From a virus (Duplodnaviria; Caudoviricetes), in the IMG/VR virus record IMGVR_UViG_3300047299_000127, positions 1 through 56,894 of that record: a stretch of DNA of 56,894 nt, one strand, 5' to 3'. Under the pieces are notes generated by a model. It was given only the letters and a program-made list of their open reading frames with translations. It was not told the DNA's origin and ran no database searches. This document shows, piece by piece, positions 36,001 through 45,261 of this stretch. The position numbers were made by a program, and so were the translations under genes. Numbering within the stretch: the first letter of the stretch is position 1; each line of letters begins with the position of its first letter.

Positions 36001-39000
36001 GCGGTTGTCGGTGTGGAAGTTCTTTTCGTCGGCCACCATCAGGCGGGCAGCCGGGTAAAGCATCTGCCACTCGTGCGCAAACTGCTTGAGCATGTGGTTG
36101 GGCACCACGATCATGGGCTTCTTGATGAGGCCAAGGCGCTTTTGCTCCATGGCCGAAATGACCATCTGGAAGGTCTTGCCCGAACCCACGGCGTGCGCCA
36201 GGTAGGTGTTGCCGCGCTGGATGATGCGCCAGGCCCCGCGCTTGACGTGATCGAACACGCTGAACGCCTTGGAGGTGCCCGGCAGCGTCAGGTGGCGACC
36301 GTCAAAGGATCGCGGCACCGTGGTGTTGAAGGTGTCGTTGTAGATCCGCACCAGGCTATCGGTGCGCTCGGCATCCTTCCAGATCCAGTTGCCGAAGGCC
36401 TCGCGCAGCGCTTCGAGCTTTTGGTTGGCGGCTTCGGTACCGGCAGCATCAAAGACCGTGGTCTTGTCCTTGCCGTAGCCCTGGCTCTTGGTGATGCGGA
36501 TGGGCCTGCCGGTCAGGGCATGCTCCATGATGTCCGTCACGTTGCGGTCAGCCGTGCCCCAGTCGGCGGTGGCCTGCATGGTCTTGCCGCCACTTGTCTC
36601 CTGAACAGACCATTGCTTGGTGCGCTCATTCCAGGACACCTCAGCACGCACACCGGCCAACTCGCGCAGGAATTGGCTGTACACAGCGCCGGGCACCCAG
36701 TTCATGCCAATGCCCACGTTGATCTGGCTCGGGGTCTTGGGCGCGGGCTGGGCAGCTTCCAGGGCGGCCACATTGCGCTCAAAGCGCTTGTCGGTCTTGG
36801 CAGCCGTGCGGGCTTCATCCAGTTTGCGCTTGACGTTGCCGCTCAAGTACTCGTCGGCAGTCACCCACCCAGCGGCAGGGTCCTCATAGATGGCAGAGCC
36901 CAGGGCCTCGATGGTCTCGGCCTCGGTCAACCCCACGCGCTGGGCGATCAGGGGAATGTCCACGTGCCCCACATCGTTGAGCGATGACAGCATCGCATCG
37001 ACGGGGGTGTTGACGCTGGCGGCATCGGGCTTGCCCAGCACGCGCTCGGTCAGGAAGGCGCTGGGCTTGATCTCGCCCGTGTCCTCGTTGATGGTCTCCA
37101 GCGCCGCGACCAGGGTGTAATCCGGGTCATCCTCCAGCTTGCGCAGCAGGGTGTAGACGCGCACCTGGGTTTCATCGGTGTAGGTCTCGCCCGTGTCCTC
37201 ATCGACCACCTTGGACTTGACGGACTTGAGCGTGAATTGGTTGATCTGGCCGTGCTTCTTGGTGAAGTCGGCATAGGCCTTTTGCAGCGCCTTGATGCTG
37301 GTTTCCCAATCGCCCTCGTTCAACTGGTCGTAGTGCGCCTGCTTGAGGGCATCGCGCAGCGGCACGAAGTCCTTGACCAGTTGCACATCGGCCTGCGAGC
37401 GCAGTTCCACGCGCTGGCCCACCCCACCCTCGCGCACCATCAGCGCGCCGGAGTCGCTGACGTAGTAGTTACCCTCTTTCTTGGCCTTGGGGTTGAAGTC
37501 GATCTCGCGGACCTTGGCCGCTTCGGCGGAAGATCCGCGCTCGGCGGTGTAGATGCCCTCGGGCAGGCGGTTGATCGCCTTGTCGAACAGGGCCTCGATG
37601 TCGCCATCGAGCGGCGCGACCGTGTATTCGCGGTCCTTGTACATGGAGCCCGCATCGGAGTGCGTGCCCAGCACCATGTCAGGGTTGGCCACGAAGTACT
37701 CGTTGATGTTGTAGTCGTTGCCGTTGACCTTGAGCGGCACCGACTTGCCCCAGGACTGCGCGCCCTCAAAGGTCTCGCCGGGCACTTTCTTGCGCAGGAA
37801 GATCACATCCGTGACCACCTCGGTACCGGCGTTTTGCTTGAAGGCGGTTTGCGGCAAGCGAATCGCGCCCACCAGGTCCGCCCGGTCGGCCAGGTACTGG
37901 CGCGCCTTGTCGTCGAGCTTGTCCATGGTGTAGCGGCTGGTGACGTACACCACCAGGCCGCCCGGCTTGGTGCGATCAATCGACTTGGCAAAGAAGTAGT
38001 CGTGCAGGCTGAATGCCCGCTTGGCGTACTCTGGATCGCTCAGGATCTTGGTGCCGGAGAACGGCGGGTTGCCGACCGACACGTCATAGAAGTTCTTGGG
38101 CAACTTGGAGTCCACGAACGACTCAACCAGGATGCGCTCGTCGGGAAACAGTTGCTTGAGGATTCGGCCCGTGAAGGAGTCGAACTCGATGCCGGTGTAG
38201 ATCGAGTTGGCGGCCATGGCGGCAGGCATGAGGCCTGGGAACACGCCAATGCCAGCGCCCGGCTCCAGGATGGCCCCACCCTTGAAACCCATGCGGTCCA
38301 AGGCGCGCCACATCGAGCGCACCACTTCCTTGCTGGTGTAGTGGGCGTACTGGGTCGAGCGTGAGGCCTCGGCCCATTCCTTCTCGGACATGGACGCCTT
38401 GAGGCGGTTGCGCAACTCCACCCACTTGCGCACGCTGGGCTCGGGCTTGGCCTTGTCCAGCATCTCGCGGGTGATGTTGCCCGCCGTGTACCAGGTCAAC
38501 TGCGGGTTGCGGTATTGCAGGACCCGGAAGGCAGGCGCGTACTCGCCATATCGGGCGTTTGTCAGGAACGGGCGATCACCCAGGGCGGCAATGGCCTCGT
38601 CGTAGTTGGTCAGTGCTTCGGCGGCCTTGTCCAGCTTGTCGCCAAACAGATTGTTGGCGATCTCAGACGCGCCCCAGCCAATGAACTTGGCCAGCTTCGC
38701 CTGCTCTTCACGGGTGGCCTGGCGGCCATCCTTCTCCAGCGACAGCAGCAGTTCAATGGCTTCGAGGTTCTGCTCGGCCTTCTTGAACCAGCTGCCCTCG
38801 TAGGTCAGGTCGGAGGCTGAGAAGGCGTAGTTTCGTCCGGACTTTGCGGGGATGTCCCGTCCTGCGGGAACTCCAGCATTTCGGCCAGCACGATCTCGCG
38901 GTTGAGGCTGCTTGCCGTTCGCATCCTGGCCGCGCACTCCATCGGCCCCAGCTTGTCCCACCCCTCCTTGATCCGCTGCGTTTGCGTCAGCGTCACCACC

Positions 39001-42000
39001 TGCGAAGAGATCTGATCCGCCAGGTCCTGGGCGTACTCGTTGAGTTGGCCGCTTGCCGCCAGGCTGCGATACAGCGCGGGTGCCTTCTCCTTGATCGCGT
39101 CCTTGACCAGCGTTATCGTTTGCATCTTGATCTCCAGGTTTCTCGCCAGTATATCCATTTCCGGATAATTGTGGTACAGTTGTGTCGAGAGGTGTTGAAA
39201 TGAGAATCCCAGACGAATTCCCGGACGGTTGCCGTTTCGTACCGACCTTCGGCGGTGACTGGTTTGTTGAATTCCCTGATGGCAGGGTGTTCAAACTGGC
39301 CGACGATGGCGTGTCGCTTGCCCCTGCACGCGAGCTACCGGCTGGCGGCATATCGGTCAGCGCTGATCCGGCTGGCTTCTTGGCCGCCGCTGCAAACGCT
39401 GCATCGTAGAACTCGGTCATCGACTGACCAATCTCGCGCCCAAGTGGTGATTCCTTGGGCGCTTCTCTTTGTGCCTCGTACAGCTTGTGACCCTGGCCCT
39501 CTTTGGCAGCCAGCATCTGCGGCACGTTGATCTGGATCTCACCGATCACGCCGTTAGGCATCACCACGTTGACCAGCACATCGGCATAGCCTCCGTAAAC
39601 CTGGCGATCTTCGGCGGGCAGTTCGCCGCCACTCCAGGTCATGGCAAATTCGCTGGTGCGGTTTTTTGGCTTGCGCAGGAGCTTGAATTCTTTTTCGATC
39701 TCGTCAAGCACCTGCTGGGCCTCGGCGTAAGACTGCACAACGATGGTTGATCGCAGCATGTCCTTCATGCCGCCAACATCGAAGTTTTCTTCAGTGACCA
39801 GCTTCTCCACAGACCGCTTCAATCCCTTGATGGGCGCGATCATTTGGCCGATGGCATTGGTGCGACCAGCGATGTCGATCACCTTCTGGTCATACTCTGC
39901 CTTCACATCCTCAGCCTTGCGAATGATTGGCGTCAGCATGCCCTCTGCGCGCTGACGCTCTTCATTCGTGATCGCAACGGCGGGGCGATCCTTGTAGTAC
40001 TTCTCGACGTAGCCATCGGCACGCTCAAGCACACCGGCATCCATGAAGGTGTCAACGCTGGGCGGGGTGAAGTTGTCCCGCTTCATGTCATACGGGCGGC
40101 CATCGATCATGGCGGCCTTGGGCTTGTCTGCCAGGTTGGCCAGCGCATCACCGAACAGGTCTTGCTGGCCCATGCGGGCCTCGGCAGCGGCAAACAGATC
40201 GTCCACACGCTGGGCCGACTCGCGGGCCATGGCCTGCTCGGCAGCCTTGCGGTACAGATCGGTGCCGATCTTGTTCCAGAAGGTCTTGAGCTTCGGATCG
40301 TTCTTGAGCGCCTGCTTGACGTAGGCCACCAGGTCCTTGAGGCTGTAACCCACTTCCTTGATACCGGCCTCCATCAGGCGGATCAGCGTGGGCATGAGGT
40401 CCGGGGTCTTTTCCGGGACCATCATCAAGCGTGTGTGCTTGGTGGCGATCATGGCCAGATCAGCCATGGCGTCCTTGAAGTCTTGGCGGGCCTGGGCACG
40501 CGCCTGGTCGGGCGCAGCACCCTCGGAGCGCTTGACACTCGGAAACTGGAAAGTGGCGGCCATCAGGTCACGGATGGGAGCGTCGAACTCGATCACCTTG
40601 ACCGGCTCATTCATGGCCAGAGCAGCCACCCACTGGTGATGCCCGTCCAGCACGTAGCCATCGGCAGAAGCCAGCACGGAGCGGTCAACGCCATCGCGCA
40701 CCTCTTTCCAGCGCTCGGCTTTCTTGCTTGAAAACTCGGCCTGGGTGGGCTTGAGGTCAGACGCAGAGCGCTCGACTGTCTTGTGCTCGATGCCCTTGCC
40801 TTGCAGGAACTGGATCAGCGCGCCGCGATGCTCGCCCTTGACCTGGGGCATTTCGGCGCGGGGAATGCCGATGGTGCCCGTGTCGGGCGGGAACATCACC
40901 CATTCGCTTTGCTCGCCTGCTTCGGTTGCGGCAGCGGCGCGGGCAGCCCCATCGCCTTGATCGCCGCCGCGATTGCCCGGCGCATCTTGGGATTGCTGTC
41001 CACTTGGCGCATCAGCTTGCGCACCTTCTCCAGGGTCTCGCCGCTGGGTGTCTTGGGCATTGTTGCCATCGTCGTTTCCTTGTGCAGATTTCAGGAGGTC
41101 GGCGCGTGCCGGTGCGGTGTCGGTGTCGCCAAAGATCGAGCCTTGGCTGGGGTCTCCAGCAGCTTCCAGGGCCTCGTAGTAGCGCTGCACGAACTCAGCA
41201 ATGCGGCGCGGGCTGCGGATGTTGTCGGCCAGCAGGGTCAGCAACTGGGCAGCCTCGGGCGAGTACTTCGCGCCCGTGAGGTCGCCTTGGCCAAGTTCGT
41301 CGGCCACGCTCCAGCCCTTTTCCTTGAGGGCGGACAGACCTTCAACGGCAGACAGCAGATCCGGCGCGATGTCGGCCTCGTACAGGGTCCCGGCCTGCAT
41401 GCGCTCGCGGGAGGCGGCAATGGTCGGGGCCACACGCACCAGCGCCTTGGTGACGTTGCGCAGGTTGTCATCCATGCTCTCGGTCATGCGGCGCAGCGTG
41501 GGCGAGTCGCCGTAGGCCTTGGCCAGCACGGCGTTTTGGATGCGGCGATAGCCGAACGTGGACAGGCGGCCATCGGACTCCACCATGTCCGACTGCTCAG
41601 TGATCGGCAGCATGGCCATGAACTGGCGGATGAAGTCGTAGGAGGTGGCAAAGTCACCGGCATCGTCGGGATTCAGCCCCTCCAGGGAAGCCAGGCGCTT
41701 GGAGTCCGACAGGGCCTGCTCGCTGGGGCTCATGCGCTGCACGGTCGAGGCGTTGGCCTGGCGTGCAAACTCGGCACGATTGACTTGTGTTGAGCGAACC
41801 CGCACCAACACAGGCTTTTCCATGGCATCGACGGATTCGGGTGTGATACCAAACTGGGCGGAGTTCTCGCGCAGCCAGGCCTTGTAGTCCTCGGCCTTCT
41901 GGCCATTGGCCTGATACACGCGCTTGAGGGCGATGGTGCGGGCGTTGCCCGACTCCACCAGGCCATCAGCGCCAACAATCGGCGCGCCAGTGGCAGCGTC

Positions 42001-43566
42001 AGCAGACAGGCCCAGGCGTGCTGGGTCGAGCTTTTGCACGATGCTGGAGACCTGCAACTCGCTGGCCGAACGGCTGCGGTCGCGGGGCTGCAACTCCTGG
42101 GGATACAGACTGTTGGGGCGCAGGCTCTCGTCGTGCGAAGTCACCAGGTCAGCGGCATTCATCAGAGCGTACTGGCCATCGAGCTTGACGCCTGCCTCGG
42201 TCGAGAAGCTGGTAGATGCGCCGGGCTGGGCCTTTGGCCAAGACTGGGCGATGCTGGCGCGCTCGCTGGCCAACTCCTGGGCTTTGGTGGCCAGTTCGGC
42301 GCGCTCCTGGTCGAAGGCGGGACCGTAGCCGTTCTCGGCGGTCAATTCCTGGGTGCGCTCGGCAATGCGCGAGATCTCACCATCGATCTCGCCCACACGG
42401 TCCAGGGCAGTGAGCGATACCGGCGTGCGCAGGGCTTTCTCGGCCTCGGTCGAGTCCCCTACCCCAACGGCTTCCACGCTGGTGGCGGTTCCTCGCGCTG
42501 GGGTTGCTCCATCGACTGGGCTTGCTGCGCCAGCAGGTCCTGGCGCTTGCGTTGTTTGACCTTGCGGGGTTTGTCCCTGGTCGGTTCCTTGCGTTGGGTC
42601 TTGCTCATTGATTCGATTGGGCAGTGCGTTGCGGGCAGCCGAATACGTGTTCATGCCGCCGCCCATACCGGCACCGGCCACCATGCCCTGGGCAGCGGCC
42701 TCGGCCACACCCTCGTCCCACGGCTTGCCCAATGCCAGGTTGGTGAACACCTGTTCTTGGGCGGACTGCGGCAGTTCCTCCAGCACGCCCTCTTTGAACG
42801 TGCCCTTGGCGATCTCTTTGCCAGCCTGCACCAAGCTCTGGCGCTGCGCGCCGCCCATGCCTGCAACGGCTGCGCCGACTTCGGCATCGCGGAAGCCAGG
42901 AATCTTGGACGTGACCAGGCTGATGGCCGCTGTGCCCAGGCCGCCAGCAACGGCGGAAGGGGCGGTATCGGTGTAGTCGCGGCCAGCCTGGCGGCCAGCC
43001 TCCTGGATGCTGCCTGCGGTCATCGCGCCTTCGGAGGCTGCGCCAATGCCTGTCAGCTTGGCGATGGTTGCGGGCTTGGCCAAGAAAGCGGCAGCCTCAG
43101 CGGTACCGGCCTTGATGCCAGCTGAGGCCAGCATCTTGGAGGCGGCAGCGCGCACGGCAGCAGCACCGCCCAACATCATTGGAGTGGACTCAACAATGGA
43201 GCCCACAGCGGCGCTGGGGTTCTGCACCAGGGCCTTGGTCGTGTCCACAAAGCCCTTGGCCCCAGCAACCTCACGATTGGCCTGCTGGCGCGGATCGCTG
43301 TAAAAGTCGCTCAGGATCTGCTTGGTTTGCTCTGGGTCGTAGCCAATGGCCCCCAGGCCCTTGCCCACCAGGTTGCCGGTGGCCAGATCTGCCAGGCCTA
43401 CGGCAGACTCTCCCAGCCCGACAACGCCTTTGGCCAGATCGATGCCGGAGTCGGCAATGGCCTCGCCCCAAGTGCGATCGCGCTGCTCTGGTTTTTTCTT
43501 CGACTGCTCTTGGTCCGGAACAAACCGACCACTAGACTCAGAATTTTCGTCCGGTACAAATGCCAT
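30016..43566 (-). CDS. 4516-aa DarB-like polyvalent virion protein: ddrB-ParB, ParB-like, RelA/SpoT-like NTase, N6-adenine MTase, SNF2 helicase, HExxH metallopeptidase, C-terminal LPD-like region
   Basis: LQPRDR..GAPIV..VESGNAR; [13 protein letters not shown]; K..R..EK..D..R.TI..GY.D..EIQ..GHKLYE; EPGAGIG/NPPF; [28 protein letters not shown]; HEAAHYGL. Confidence 0.9.
38805..39125 (-). CDS. Nested TnpV-like protein (106 aa), out of frame within the giant gene
   Basis: GGAG SD; [21 protein letters not shown]...REIVLAEM resembles TnpV; the host frame here is a low-complexity linker. Confidence 0.65.
   Translation of the reverse strand: MQTITLVKDAIKEKAPALYRSLAASGQLNEYAQDLADQISSQVVTLTQTQRIKEGWDKLGPMECAARMRTASSLNREIVLAEMLEFPQDGTSPQSPDETTPSQPPT
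39152..39167. promoter_or_regulatory. Operator TATCCATTTCCGGATA inside the giant gene, between divergent nested ORFs
   Basis: Matches the cI/cro operator family; local AT-rich patch with TATACT (minus) and TGGTACAGT (plus). Confidence 0.7.
39200..39409 (+). CDS. Nested antisense protein (69 aa) directly behind the RelA/SpoT-like domain; candidate immunity protein
   Basis: GAGGTG SD; globular-looking [33 protein letters not shown]. Confidence 0.6.
   Translation: MRIPDEFPDGCRFVPTFGGDWFVEFPDGRVFKLADDGVSLAPARELPAGGISVSADPAGFLAAAANAAS
40896..41069 (-). CDS. Nested out-of-frame ORF (57 aa) after the ddrB-ParB region
   Basis: AAGGA SD; [41 protein letters not shown]; GC3-rich codons in this frame; translated by hand. 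Confidence 0.55.
   Translation of the reverse strand: MATMPKTPSGETLEKVRKLMRQVDSNPKMRRAIAAAIKAMGLPAPLPQPKQASKANG
42459..42608 (-). CDS. Nested out-of-frame ORF (49 aa, basic) in the first linker of the giant gene
   Basis: [28 protein letters not shown]; host-frame codons turn A/T-rich at third positions; no clear SD. Confidence 0.4.
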   Translation of the reverse strand: MSKTQRKEPTRDKPRKVKQRKRQDLLAQQAQSMEQPQREEPPPAWKPLG

Positions 43567-43573
43567 TGCGCAA

Positions 43574-43614
43574 CCTCATCAGAATGTCTCCGATGAGGGT
43601 GCCATGCTTGCCAC
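43574..43614 (-). promoter_or_regulatory. Late motif plus SD-occluding hairpin upstream of the giant gene
   Basis: GTGGCAAGCATGGCA at 43614-43600; CCTCATC/GATGAGG stem includes the GAGG SD. Confidence 0.6.
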
Positions 43615-43617
43615 CAA

Positions 43618-45261
43618 TTACTGCCAGGTGCCGGACTTGCCGCCAATGGTGATGCGGTCGCCCTTCTTGATCTTGCCCTCTTTGGCGGCCTTCTCTGCAT
43701 CAGCCTCGCTGGCAAAAGACACCCCGGCAGCCTTGGGCGCTGCGGGCATGGCCCAGCGGCCATTGGCCTTGGCATAGCCCATGGTCTCCATCACCTTGTC
43801 GGCGGACGCCACGGCATCCTCGGGCTTGGCCATGTTCTTGATGCCAGCGGCCACAAATTCTTTGTGCAACTCGCCGGGGTCCTGGGTTTTCTTGGTCAGG
43901 GCCATTTCGAGCCCTGAGCGCATGTCGGGCGCAAGGCCTGCATTGACCATGGCCTGCGCCAGCTTCACCTCGGAAGGCGCGTTCTTGCTGTCCGGGTTGA
44001 TGTCGATGACGCCACGGCGCACAGCCTCCAACTCGGCAGCGGTCGCGTTCGGGTTGCGCTGCTTGAACAGTTCCACGGCAGCGGTAGCCTTGGCTGTCTT
44101 ATCGTCCTTCTCGGTCGTGGCAGCGGTGGCGGCCCGTGCATCGGCGTTCTTGGACAGTTGCAGCTGCTCATTGCCGCGCCGGTTGGTCTCGCTCTGGTAG
44201 AAGCGATTGAACACCTCACCGGCTTTGCCCAGCGAGTCCAGTTCGGCCACGGTGTTGATCGTGCGGGTGTTGCCCTGGCCATCCTTGAACTGAATGACAC
44301 GGGTCTCCACGCCATCCTTGTTCTTGACCATCTTGTCAGAGATCACGTTGGCCGGATCAAACTGCACCTTGCCGGTAGCGTTGAAGGACTTGGCCACCTC
44401 CTGGATCGAGCCGCCAGACTGGGCCAGGCGCAGGGTCTTTTCGTAGCCCTCGCTTTGCACCTTGTTGAGCAGGTCGGTGAACTCGCCAAAGGCTTTGGCA
44501 TCGAGCTTGCCGAAGCGGGCATCGTGGTCGATCAGCGCGGCGCGGTCGGCCAGCGCATCGCCCACCGAGTACTCGGGGCGGGCAGGTGCCACAGGGGCCA
44601 GGCCCAACTCGGGGCCAGTCTTGCCGGAGGCCTTCGCGCCCTCGTAGTCGGCTAGGCGCTTTTGGTAGTCGGACATGGCCTGGTTGTAGGACTGCTGGTT
44701 TTGGCCAAAGCGTGAGGACGAAAACAGGCCCTTGCGCCCTTCCTCGTATTCCTTTTGCTTGGCCACTTCCTCGTCCTGGCGCTCCCAGTTCTTTTGTTCG
44801 CGGCCAAAGCGCTGCTGTTCCTGGGTGAAACGTGCTTCGTCGCGCTGGCCAGCAATGGCTTGCTGCTCCATCTGCATGCCGCGCACGGGGTCAAACTTCT
44901 TGATGACACCGGCCATGGCCATGGTCTTGGCGTTGTTGGCCTGGCTGGGCGTCATGGTGCCAGCCGTGCGCTGGCCCATGAAGTCGGTCACGCCCTGCTG
45001 GGCGATCACGCCAGTCTCGCCGCCTGCCTTGGGGGTGACGGTATAGCCCTTCTTGCCCTCGTCATAGGCGATGTCGTACTGGCCAGACTCGGCGGCAGCG
45101 CGCAACTGATCGCCCTGCTCTGCCGTGAAGCCTTCGCTTGTGGTGGGCTGCTCGCTGGCGATCTTGCGCAACTCGGCGTCCTGCAAGACTTTGCTCACAG
45201 TGCCGTAGCCCTGATTGAAGCCCTCGAAAAACTCTGCAACTCGGTTTCGACGTGCCATCAC
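43618..45261 (-). CDS. Putative internal virion/ejection protein
   Basis: 547 aa, helical and Gln/Ala-rich; between the ejection protein and the giant protein. Confidence 0.65.
   Translation of the reverse strand: MMARRNRVAEFFEGFNQGYGTVSKVLQDAELRKIASEQPTTSEGFTAEQGDQLRAAAESGQYDIAYDEGKKGYTVTPKAGGETGVIAQQGVTDFMGQRTAGTMTPSQANNAKTMAMAGVIKKFDPVRGMQMEQQAIAGQRDEARFTQEQQRFGREQKNWERQDEEVAKQKEYEEGRKGLFSSSRFGQNQQSYNQAMSDYQKRLADYEGAKASGKTGPELGLAPVAPARPEYSVGDALADRAALIDHDARFGKLDAKAFGEFTDLLNKVQSEGYEKTLRLAQSGGSIQEVAKSFNATGKVQFDPANVISDKMVKNKDGVETRVIQFKDGQGNTRTINTVAELDSLGKAGEVFNRFYQSETNRRGNEQLQLSKNADARAATAATTEKDDKTAKATAAVELFKQRNPNATAAELEAVRRGVIDINPDSKNAPSEVKLAQAMVNAGLAPDMRSGLEMALTKKTQDPGELHKEFVAAGIKNMAKPEDAVASADKVMETMGYAKANGRWAMPAAPKAAGVSFASEADAEKAAKEGKIKKGDRITIGGKSGTWQ

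Follow-up and report, generated by a model that had tools for sequence, protein, structure and literature searches.

Two linkers of a giant DarB-like phage gene very probably overlie complete small genes in the +1 reading frame

What are the linkers of a giant multi-module phage protein made from, and can the same DNA also encode something else? The question is raised by a tailed-phage sequence (Duplodnaviria; Caudoviricetes) catalogued as IMG/VR virus record IMGVR_UViG_3300047299_000127, which was analysed over its full 56,894 nucleotides (nt) and is referred to below as the window. Its largest gene encodes a DarB-like product of 4516 residues, in which enzymatic modules are joined by disordered linkers rich in Gly, Asp, Gln, Ala, Arg and Pro (G/D/Q/A/R/P), and three of these linkers are spanned by same-strand, out-of-frame open reading frames (ORFs) that encode 49, 57 and 106 amino acids (aa). 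The original prediction, made by a model from the DNA letters, was that all three appear to be overprinted small genes, each perhaps the partner of an enzymatic module. The analysis reported here makes it very probable that two of the linkers overlie complete, independently translated small genes in the +1 frame, one of 57 codons and one that belongs to the TnpV family, and that the 49-codon ORF is compositional. Over the two nested genes both reading frames are kept by selection. The features concerned are collected in Table 1.

Table 1. Features of the giant gene and its linkers (window positions)
Feature	Position	Strand	Basis
Host gene, 4516-codon DarB-like polyvalent (methylase-helicase) phage protein	30016..43566	-	ORF and translation, Pfam, tblastn
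Nested gene 1, 57 codons including TGA stop, frame +1, new unnamed family	40896..41069	-	homologues, dN/dS, AlphaFold2
Nested gene 2, TnpV family, 106 codons including TGA stop, frame +1	38805..39125	-	Pfam, homologues, dN/dS, AlphaFold2
49-codon +1-frame ORF in linker 1, most likely chance	42459..42608	-	no Shine-Dalgarno motif, no homologue, P(open) 0.94
GGAG Shine-Dalgarno motif of nested gene 2 (6 nt before the 39125 ATG)	39132..39135	-	sequence
AAGGA Shine-Dalgarno motif of nested gene 1 (7 nt before the 41069 ATG)	41077..41081	-	sequence
AT-rich leader of the TnpV-like gene	39126..39215	-	GC 0.46 vs 0.63 for the gene

The three ORFs were found exactly where they had been predicted, all in frame +1 of the giant gene, where they overlie host residues 320–370 (49-aa ORF), 833–891 (57-aa ORF) and 1481–1588 (106-aa ORF); an alternative start at 39158 gives a 117-aa form of the last. 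The shift in GC content between codon positions, which had been judged by eye, is borne out by measurement. The GC content at codon positions 1, 2 and 3 (GC1/2/3) is 0.65/0.44/0.80 for the whole giant gene, and in the host frame of the three stretches it becomes 0.78/0.66/0.44 (49-aa ORF), 0.84/0.60/0.52 (57-aa ORF) and 0.81/0.61/0.47 (106-aa ORF), so that it is the nested frame which carries the genome-like pattern; in a 40-codon sliding scan of the gene, host position 3 was GC-poorest in these three stretches only. Neither the span of the ORFs nor this pattern is evidence by itself. A stop codon in the +1 frame needs T at host codon position 2, which is present in merely 2–10% of linker residues (V, L, I, F or M), and when the linker peptide was kept and its synonymous codons were redrawn the +1 frame stayed open with P = 0.10–1.0 (0.94 for the 49-aa ORF). 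Likewise, linker 1 of the closest relative, locus L002, has the same frame-1-like GC pattern and yet is without an ATG-started ORF. Judged by ORF span and GC pattern, the proposal that linker-spanning ORFs are genes does no better than chance; conservation, selection and start signals place the 57-aa and 106-aa ORFs, but not the 49-aa one, far beyond it. A further, ‘frame 2-like’ GC pattern at host residues ~1381–1450 was set aside as compositional; an S/T/N/P-rich motif is conserved there in the host frame, and frame 2 has a stop in locus L003.

Both of these products belong to families of small proteins. The 106-aa ORF matches the Pfam family PF14198 (TnpV) with 30.8 bits (E = 3.1e-7; gathering cut-off 27), residues 19–94 of the 117-aa form aligning to positions 31–110 of the 111 in the profile. 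It has 43 metagenome homologues of 45–91% identity, 20 of which are exactly 106 aa long, and a profile of the family has 230 representatives, the best 150 of which are 37–408 aa in length (4 exceed 200 aa) and include no giant protein; among those best matches TnpV is thus found in small proteins that stand alone, not as one part of a larger protein. Two free-standing TnpV-like copies, at metagenome loci L034 and L027, are 47–52% identical to the nested product and score 37.9 and 28.2 bits, respectively, against PF14198, both above the cut-off; the copy in L034 follows a helicase gene, and that in L027 follows a coupled 121-aa ORF. The 57-aa product has 18 metagenome homologues of 55–97 aa, which share the N-terminal Met, a TPSGE motif and a basic, alanine-containing helix. 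Profile–profile comparison of the two nested families with hhalign gave a probability of 0.2%, and they are therefore regarded as unrelated.

The nesting is a conserved property of the locus. Related loci were drawn from one Burkholderiales metagenome-assembled genome and from viral contigs, and in 11 of 11 an open frame of 2775–5086 codons runs over the TnpV-like ORF, which is in its +1 frame (these loci amount to 9 distinct contigs: L012 and L013 are merged, L005 equals L011 and L002 equals L006; protein identity 38–99%), with the third frame over the same stretch broken into pieces of 21–107 codons. Of 23 further metagenome loci, 22 have a host frame without stops over the TnpV match, and an uninterrupted third frame is seen at one, where the match is a 41-codon fragment. 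The host frame extends for at least 375 codons in 18 of the 23; in the other five (L024–L027 and L034) it runs for only 170–210 codons and ends inside the contig, and the two inspected, L027 and L034, are the free-standing copies described above. The 57-aa ORF is in the +1 frame at eight loci (the window, L001, L002, L004, L005, where it is weak, L007, L008 and L009) and at 7 of the 23 metagenome loci, in these seven always within an open frame of at least 3387 codons; some of them duplicate viral contigs already counted. Both frames are open across relatives beyond expectation for the TnpV-like gene, and more weakly so for the 57-aa gene. The nested frame is also the better conserved of the two: over the TnpV stretch its identity exceeds that of the host frame in 54 of 55 locus pairs (with one tie), and over the 57-aa gene nested identity is 51–71% vs 30–43% for the host. 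As an internal control, every alternative-frame segment of the window gene was compared with the other loci, and 74 segments had cross-locus matches. The two segments that hold the nested genes surpassed the host frame in each of their syntenic matches (5/5 and 9/9), the segment holding the 49-aa ORF did so in its single match (L008), four others did so in 1 of 5–9 matches, and 67 never did.

The pattern of substitution indicates where selection acts. Counted by nested codon position, the substitutions over the TnpV stretch number 1819/1735/2178; nested position 2 has the fewest, and host position 3, normally the freest, is therefore the least variable. Ratios of nonsynonymous to synonymous substitution (dN/dS) were estimated with the overlap allowed for, by classing each substitution by its effect in both frames, pooling four (TnpV) or three (57-aa) independent pairs and bootstrapping over sites. 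For the TnpV-like gene the ratio is 0.50 (0.36–0.66) in the nested frame and 1.00 (0.74–1.38) in the host frame, and for the 57-aa gene it is 0.51 (0.31–0.80) and 1.57 (0.95–2.75), respectively. Across 700 methylase-helicase codons, used as a control, a mock +1 frame gave 0.81 (0.71–0.92) and the host frame 0.23 (0.21–0.26). The nested frames are thus under purifying selection (0.50 and 0.51 vs 0.81 for the mock frame), and selection is reversed in the two linkers, where it acts mainly on the nested frame whilst the host peptide drifts approximately neutrally. Drift of the peptide does not extend to its stop codons. When the TnpV-like protein was kept and its codons were redrawn from host usage, the host frame stayed open with P = 0.005–0.07 in 10 of 11 loci (0.47 in L001, where GC3 = 0.89), and the third frame was almost never open in the same redraws. 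Because its openness exceeds this expectation, the host frame is NEVERTHELESS kept open, and read-through of the giant frame holds for the TnpV stretch at least. Over the small genes, avoidance of stops is the sole constraint on the host frame, whose peptide is otherwise free to drift.

Each nested gene has translation start signals of its own. The Shine-Dalgarno (SD) motifs that had been reported are both present (Table 1), and an SD-like 4-mer lies 5–11 nt before the conserved ATG of the 57-aa gene in 8/8 loci and before that of the TnpV-like gene in 8/11, or 10/11 if an ATG two codons upstream is counted; the background, taken over out-of-frame ATGs, is 147/1172 (12.5%). The start region of the 57-aa gene (-35 to +25) falls within the least-structured 0.5–5 percentile of the 60-nt windows of the gene in 8/8 loci, and that of the TnpV-like gene is at a percentile of at most 8.5 in 9/11. 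In 9/11 loci, the 90-nt stretch that precedes the TnpV ATG ranks with the most AT-rich windows of that length in the gene (percentile at most 0.9). The exceptions are L001 and L007, in which another nested ORF takes the place of the AT-rich leader and ends in a TAA that abuts the TnpV ATG. This extra +1 ORF of ~80 codons (at about 4842–5150 in L001 and upstream of 10001 in L007) gives the arrangement of a two-gene nested operon; a protein of 182 aa (P0022) resembles a read-through of the extra ORF and the TnpV-like ORF, and a coupled upstream ORF likewise precedes the free-standing copy in L027. Within the leader, a TATACT hexamer is found at 39148–39153, and TATACT or TATAGT is retained by 8 of the 10 loci aligned, although codon usage is GC3-rich. 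The host frame over 39126–39330 (minus strand) encodes a conserved S/T/N/P-rich motif with two PSGNS repeats, and the DNA ahead of the TnpV-like gene carries GGGAATTC twice, ~60 nt apart. Going by its sequence, this region of repeats and TATACT (39126–39330) could be a promoter, an operator or a ribosome-loading leader. Terminator-like sites in 38500–43700 number 7, vs 5.6 expected.

Several observations weigh against the conclusion that two complete small genes are translated from within the giant gene. The dN/dS method is biased below 1, as the value of 0.81 for the mock +1 frame of a normal domain indicates, and the nested interval of the 57-aa gene (0.31–0.80) overlaps the interval of that control (0.71–0.92). 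One of the four TnpV pairs, L001–L008, has a nested ratio of 1.02. For the 57-aa gene the openness of the host frame (P = 0.06–0.55) is not individually significant, and the loci share a phylogeny, so that locus counts are not independent trials. A scan of 38500–43700 for sigma-70 consensus promoters within the gene returned 0 sites. An RNA-library run, X20, yielded four short contigs, two of them longer than 100 nt (38771–38951 and 39217–39408); being few, short and possibly derived from DNA, these are not taken as evidence of transcription. Neither nested-protein model matches a solved fold, so that function is argued from context, and translation of the nested genes in this uncultured phage is predicted from sequence.

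Could the linkers have given rise to all three ORFs by composition? G/D/Q/A/R/P linkers lack T at position 2, and ATGs would arise in them from Asp-Gly/Ala codon pairs; the codon redraws, in which the +1 frame is so often open, and linker 1 of L002, with its GC pattern and no ATG-started ORF, agree with such an origin, and it fits the 49-aa ORF. For the other two it was rejected on conservation, dN/dS and start signals, since it leaves the Pfam membership of the 106-aa ORF unexplained and does not account for the higher conservation and reversed dN/dS of the nested frames, for the conserved SD motifs, ATGs and unstructured starts, or for the existence of free-standing relatives; as an explanation of all three ORFs it is very unlikely. 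A different possibility is that the nested ORFs are fossils, that is, small genes swallowed when modules fused, no longer expressed and still recognisable since the fusion was recent. The free-standing members of the TnpV family and a host peptide that looks like an out-of-frame reading are what such a history would leave behind, and the expression of the nested ORFs is itself deduced. However, a dead frame would be expected to pick up stops wherever the change is silent for the host, and host position 3 in fact varies least; the nested frame is moreover intact in every locus down to 38% protein identity, with a dN/dS of ~0.5 and with start codon, SD motif and low-structure start region kept. 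Fossil status is accordingly improbable, and the word ‘absorbed’, which had been applied to the small genes, does not hold in the sense of dead: both retain SD, ATG and purifying selection.

Two further explanations concern the frame relation itself. In a single genome, paired indels in a tolerant linker, whether real or introduced by sequencing, would mimic the local picture, and TnpV would then be an in-frame domain of the giant protein. That this holds here is very hard to credit, given the same +1 relation in 11/11 loci and in the 18 further loci with a host frame of at least 375 codons, the TAA that immediately precedes the nested ATG at loci L001 and L007, and a length of at most 408 aa for each of the 150 best profile matches (of 230). 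Contigs from three other studies, moreover, span 38600–41300 at 95–99% identity, the listed indels being 3-nt insertions at 39385/39391 only, and because these independent assemblies agree the nested arrangement is not an assembly artefact. (The insertion polymorphism at 39385–39391 corresponds to one Ala codon in an alanine run of the host frame.) Programmed ribosomal frameshifting, which is known in phages, would instead have ribosomes slip from the giant frame to +1, so that truncated proteins end in nested sequence. In the window the nested frame is indeed open over the 55 codons that precede the 39125 ATG, but relatives do not share this open run (L001 and L007 have 0 codons of it, and L003, L004 and L005 have 19 up to the chosen ATG), and a conserved ATG with an SD motif fits initiation. 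Frameshifting is for these reasons also given very little weight, and the reading of two independently initiated +1 genes is retained.

The third ORF stands apart. It has no SD motif upstream; its product, of which 65% is K, R, Q, E or P, has no homologue among 5.8 billion proteins and no Pfam or PHROG match. The closest relative, L002, does not keep linker 1: although its nested TnpV-like ORF is 98–99% identical, it has a different linker there, without the 49-aa ORF. Elsewhere the corresponding stretch is unrelated (L001) or interrupted by stops (L004 and L009), and L008 alone has comparable sequence, in which GTG replaces the ATG. To judge from its sequence, the 49-codon ORF is most likely a chance by-product of linker composition; that it is a young lineage-specific gene is perhaps a minor possibility. 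Of the idea that linkers are used repeatedly for overprinted genes, what survives is two unrelated genes in two successive linkers, conserved in relatives, without the third. Comparison of constraint across homologous giant genes, part of the check that had been proposed, similarly comes out in favour of the 57-aa and 106-aa ORFs and against the 49-aa ORF, whose frame has stops or is unrelated in L001, L004 and L009.

It had also been suggested that each enzymatic module travels with its own small partner gene, and here the module order of the relatives points the other way. In L005 and L010, modules B (about residues 831–1137) and C (about 1153–1569) are in swapped order compared with the window, and the TnpV-like gene stays behind module C. 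In L001 and L007 another module replaces C and TnpV is still ahead of the methylase; in L009 the body of module C is gone, with the AT-rich leader and TnpV kept; and in Burkholderia phage JC1, in which module C is replaced or missing, a TnpV-like ORF is again ahead of the methylase. Since its placement persists through swap, replacement and loss of module C, the TnpV-like gene moves as a cassette of its own, shifting independently of any one enzyme module, and not as the partner of a single enzyme. The 57-aa gene follows the ddrB-ParB module in 8/8 of the loci that have it, regardless of which module comes next. Judged on these arrangements, both nested genes behave as cassettes of their own.

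How such an arrangement might work and have arisen can be outlined. The 57-codon gene is placed after the ddrB-ParB module and the TnpV-family gene ahead of the methylase-helicase module, two of the disordered linkers of the DarB-like protein lying over them. Ribosomes would load at each nested SD and ATG, within a locally unstructured stretch of the giant mRNA that is AT-rich in the case of the TnpV-like gene, and one late transcript would thereby yield the giant protein together with two small accessory proteins. The small genes may be the older reading, the linker having arisen when module genes fused by read-through one base early. For TnpV the linker is probably the younger reading, because close relatives stand free, and a linker peptide rich in G/D/Q/A/R/P is what would be obtained, as a GC3-rich gene read one base early rarely meets a stop. 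To this extent the earlier suggestion that a small gene was absorbed as an in-frame linker is upheld, by the free-standing TnpV relatives, the neutral linker peptide and its out-of-frame composition. It may be proposed, tentatively, that the target of the two small proteins is the giant protein, which they would help to assemble or package, or hold in check, their synthesis being timed with its own. A broader and rather doubtful extension is that the linkers of polyvalent proteins are built systematically by reading through small genes, each linker doubling as an expression cassette (leader, SD and gene) whose product controls, chaperones or neutralises the modules of the injected protein during its synthesis in the producing cell, and that module shuffling carries the cassettes along; if so, the principle would be displayed twice in one gene, by two unrelated families. 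Such nesting would suggest a route for the fusion of multi-module proteins, and if both frames are translated it would be a clean case, in a bacterial virus, of a new reading that serves as a mere spacer over an older gene. Host codon position 3 is nested position 2, so host-silent changes there could separate the two frames genetically.

Nested phage genes are known from other systems. Rz1, of the phage lambda spanin, is a complete same-strand +1 gene with its own start that lies wholly inside Rz, and both products are made. The genes described here resemble it in being whole small +1 genes with their own starts inside a larger phage gene. Rz and Rz1 are, however, both folded and bind each other, whereas here the host frame is a neutrally drifting disordered linker; the nested TnpV family is older and also free-standing, and there are two unrelated nested genes in two linkers. 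In Bacillus subtilis, comS is a small out-of-frame gene inside the giant multi-modular srfAB, which is a likeness, but comS encodes a lineage-specific peptide, in contrast to the conserved families placed precisely in inter-module linkers here. In classical viral overprinting one stretch encodes two proteins in different frames and the new protein is usually born inside the old gene, as set out in PMC8227390; compared with that account, here the old gene would be the small nested one and the new reading the spacer of a fusion protein. Canonical TnpV (Tn4451/Tn4453 and Tn6104–6106) is free-standing beside a serine recombinase, and its role in excision was postulated from likeness to lambda Xis (PMC3158075). 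The nested 106-aa product shares with it a score above the PF14198 gathering cut-off and differs in being nested in the gene of a putative phage virion protein, in missing approximately the first 30 profile positions and in having no adjacent recombinase: it lies inside a DarB-like gene and not beside a large serine recombinase in a mobilisable transposon, and no recombinase flanks it within the window. In the literature covered, the sole description of TnpV is of a transposon gene with a postulated part in excision (PMC3158075). Among the listings and abstracts searched, no paper describes TnpV or another gene as nested in a gene of the DarB-like or polyvalent kind.

The giant gene itself encodes a polyvalent protein with methylase and helicase modules, a type characterised by Iyer et al. 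(2017; PMC5512222), as its Pfam domains and tblastn matches indicate. Pfam places ddrB-ParB at residues 459–591, an Eco57I methylase at 1822–1896 (26.4 bits vs a cut-off of 25.3) and SNF2/helicase signals at 2450–2988, the last marginally below their cut-offs (SNF2-rel 24.8 vs 24.9; Helicase_C 21.9 vs 23.5). An N6-adenine methylase is thus fused to a superfamily 2 (SF2)/SNF2 helicase in one large protein, as in DarB-like proteins. In tblastn, phages of Burkholderia (Lessievirus) and Ralstonia supplied matches of 40–45% identity, in proteins annotated as DarB-like antirestriction, only from residue ~1550 on. The methylase-SF2 helicase dyad is a described polyvalent-protein architecture, and the dyad and the ParB-like module together form the likeness to P1 DarB and the polyvalent proteins (Iyer et al. 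2017; PMC5512222). The nested linker genes are not part of that description as far as a term search of its text goes, ‘linker’, ‘overlapping’ and ‘TnpV’ having 0 occurrences. Going by the names of homologues and by the same paper, the giant protein may be packaged in the virion, injected and active against restriction, and the domain preceding the methylase would, by the description in PMC5512222 only, be LPD36. Two unstudied small proteins are in this way tied to an anti-restriction protein that would be injected by the phage, one of them from a family, TnpV, that has been without an established function since its first description. Module C (39367–40119, minus strand) has a weak RelA/SpoT-like match over most of the profile (E = 0.024; 15.3 bits vs a cut-off of 27).

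Structure prediction gives a limited view of the two small proteins. The AlphaFold2 model of the 57-aa product is a helical hairpin of two helices with a predicted local distance difference test score (pLDDT) of 76, and a Foldseek search of it against the PDB returned 0 matches; the product has no PHROG match, and the ESM Atlas gave no usable one. The TnpV-like protein is modelled as four helices and a disordered tail (pLDDT 78), its last ~23 codons, predicted to be disordered, reaching the start of the methylase module. Foldseek returned 6 PDB matches for it at E ≤ 10, none at ≤ 0.001, and its PHROG matches are weak at best (E = 0.0085). When the TnpV-like protein and the initial 520 residues of the methylase module were modelled as a complex, without controls, the score was 0.22 vs a mark of 0.32, and no conclusion is drawn from it. 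The products of both genes had no tblastn matches in the GenBank phage and PLSDB plasmid collections. When frames were read directly, phage JC1 was found to carry, immediately ahead of its methylase module, the distant TnpV-like +1 ORF mentioned above (L014, 1247–1582; 32% identity; pairwise E = 7e-9), over which the DarB-like coding sequence is the sole annotation in the GenBank record. Annotation pipelines forbid a gene within a gene, and nested small proteins go unrecorded as a result, the JC1 record being an example.

Some smaller observations concern the giant protein and its distribution. It has 0 Cys in 4516 residues (0–4 in relatives), unlike the nested TnpV-like protein, which has one Cys that is kept in most relatives. 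An insert of ~340 residues splits the helicase, relative to the window, at giant-protein residues ~2642–2984 in L005 and ~2914–3256 in L010; these inserts have a deviant codon pattern and intein-like sequence features. Motifs of the type Q-x-D-L-F or S-D-L-F, which we take to resemble sliding-clamp-binding motifs, occur in host-frame linkers at window residues ~1125–1140 and ~1518–1524 and, in L003 and L004, just upstream of the TnpV ORF. Finally, 16 DNA runs from 13 studies of freshwater, aquatic, groundwater, wastewater and bioleaching samples, one of which may be the source sample, contain 30–100% of the words sampled from 38600–41300 of the window, many of them approximately one third.

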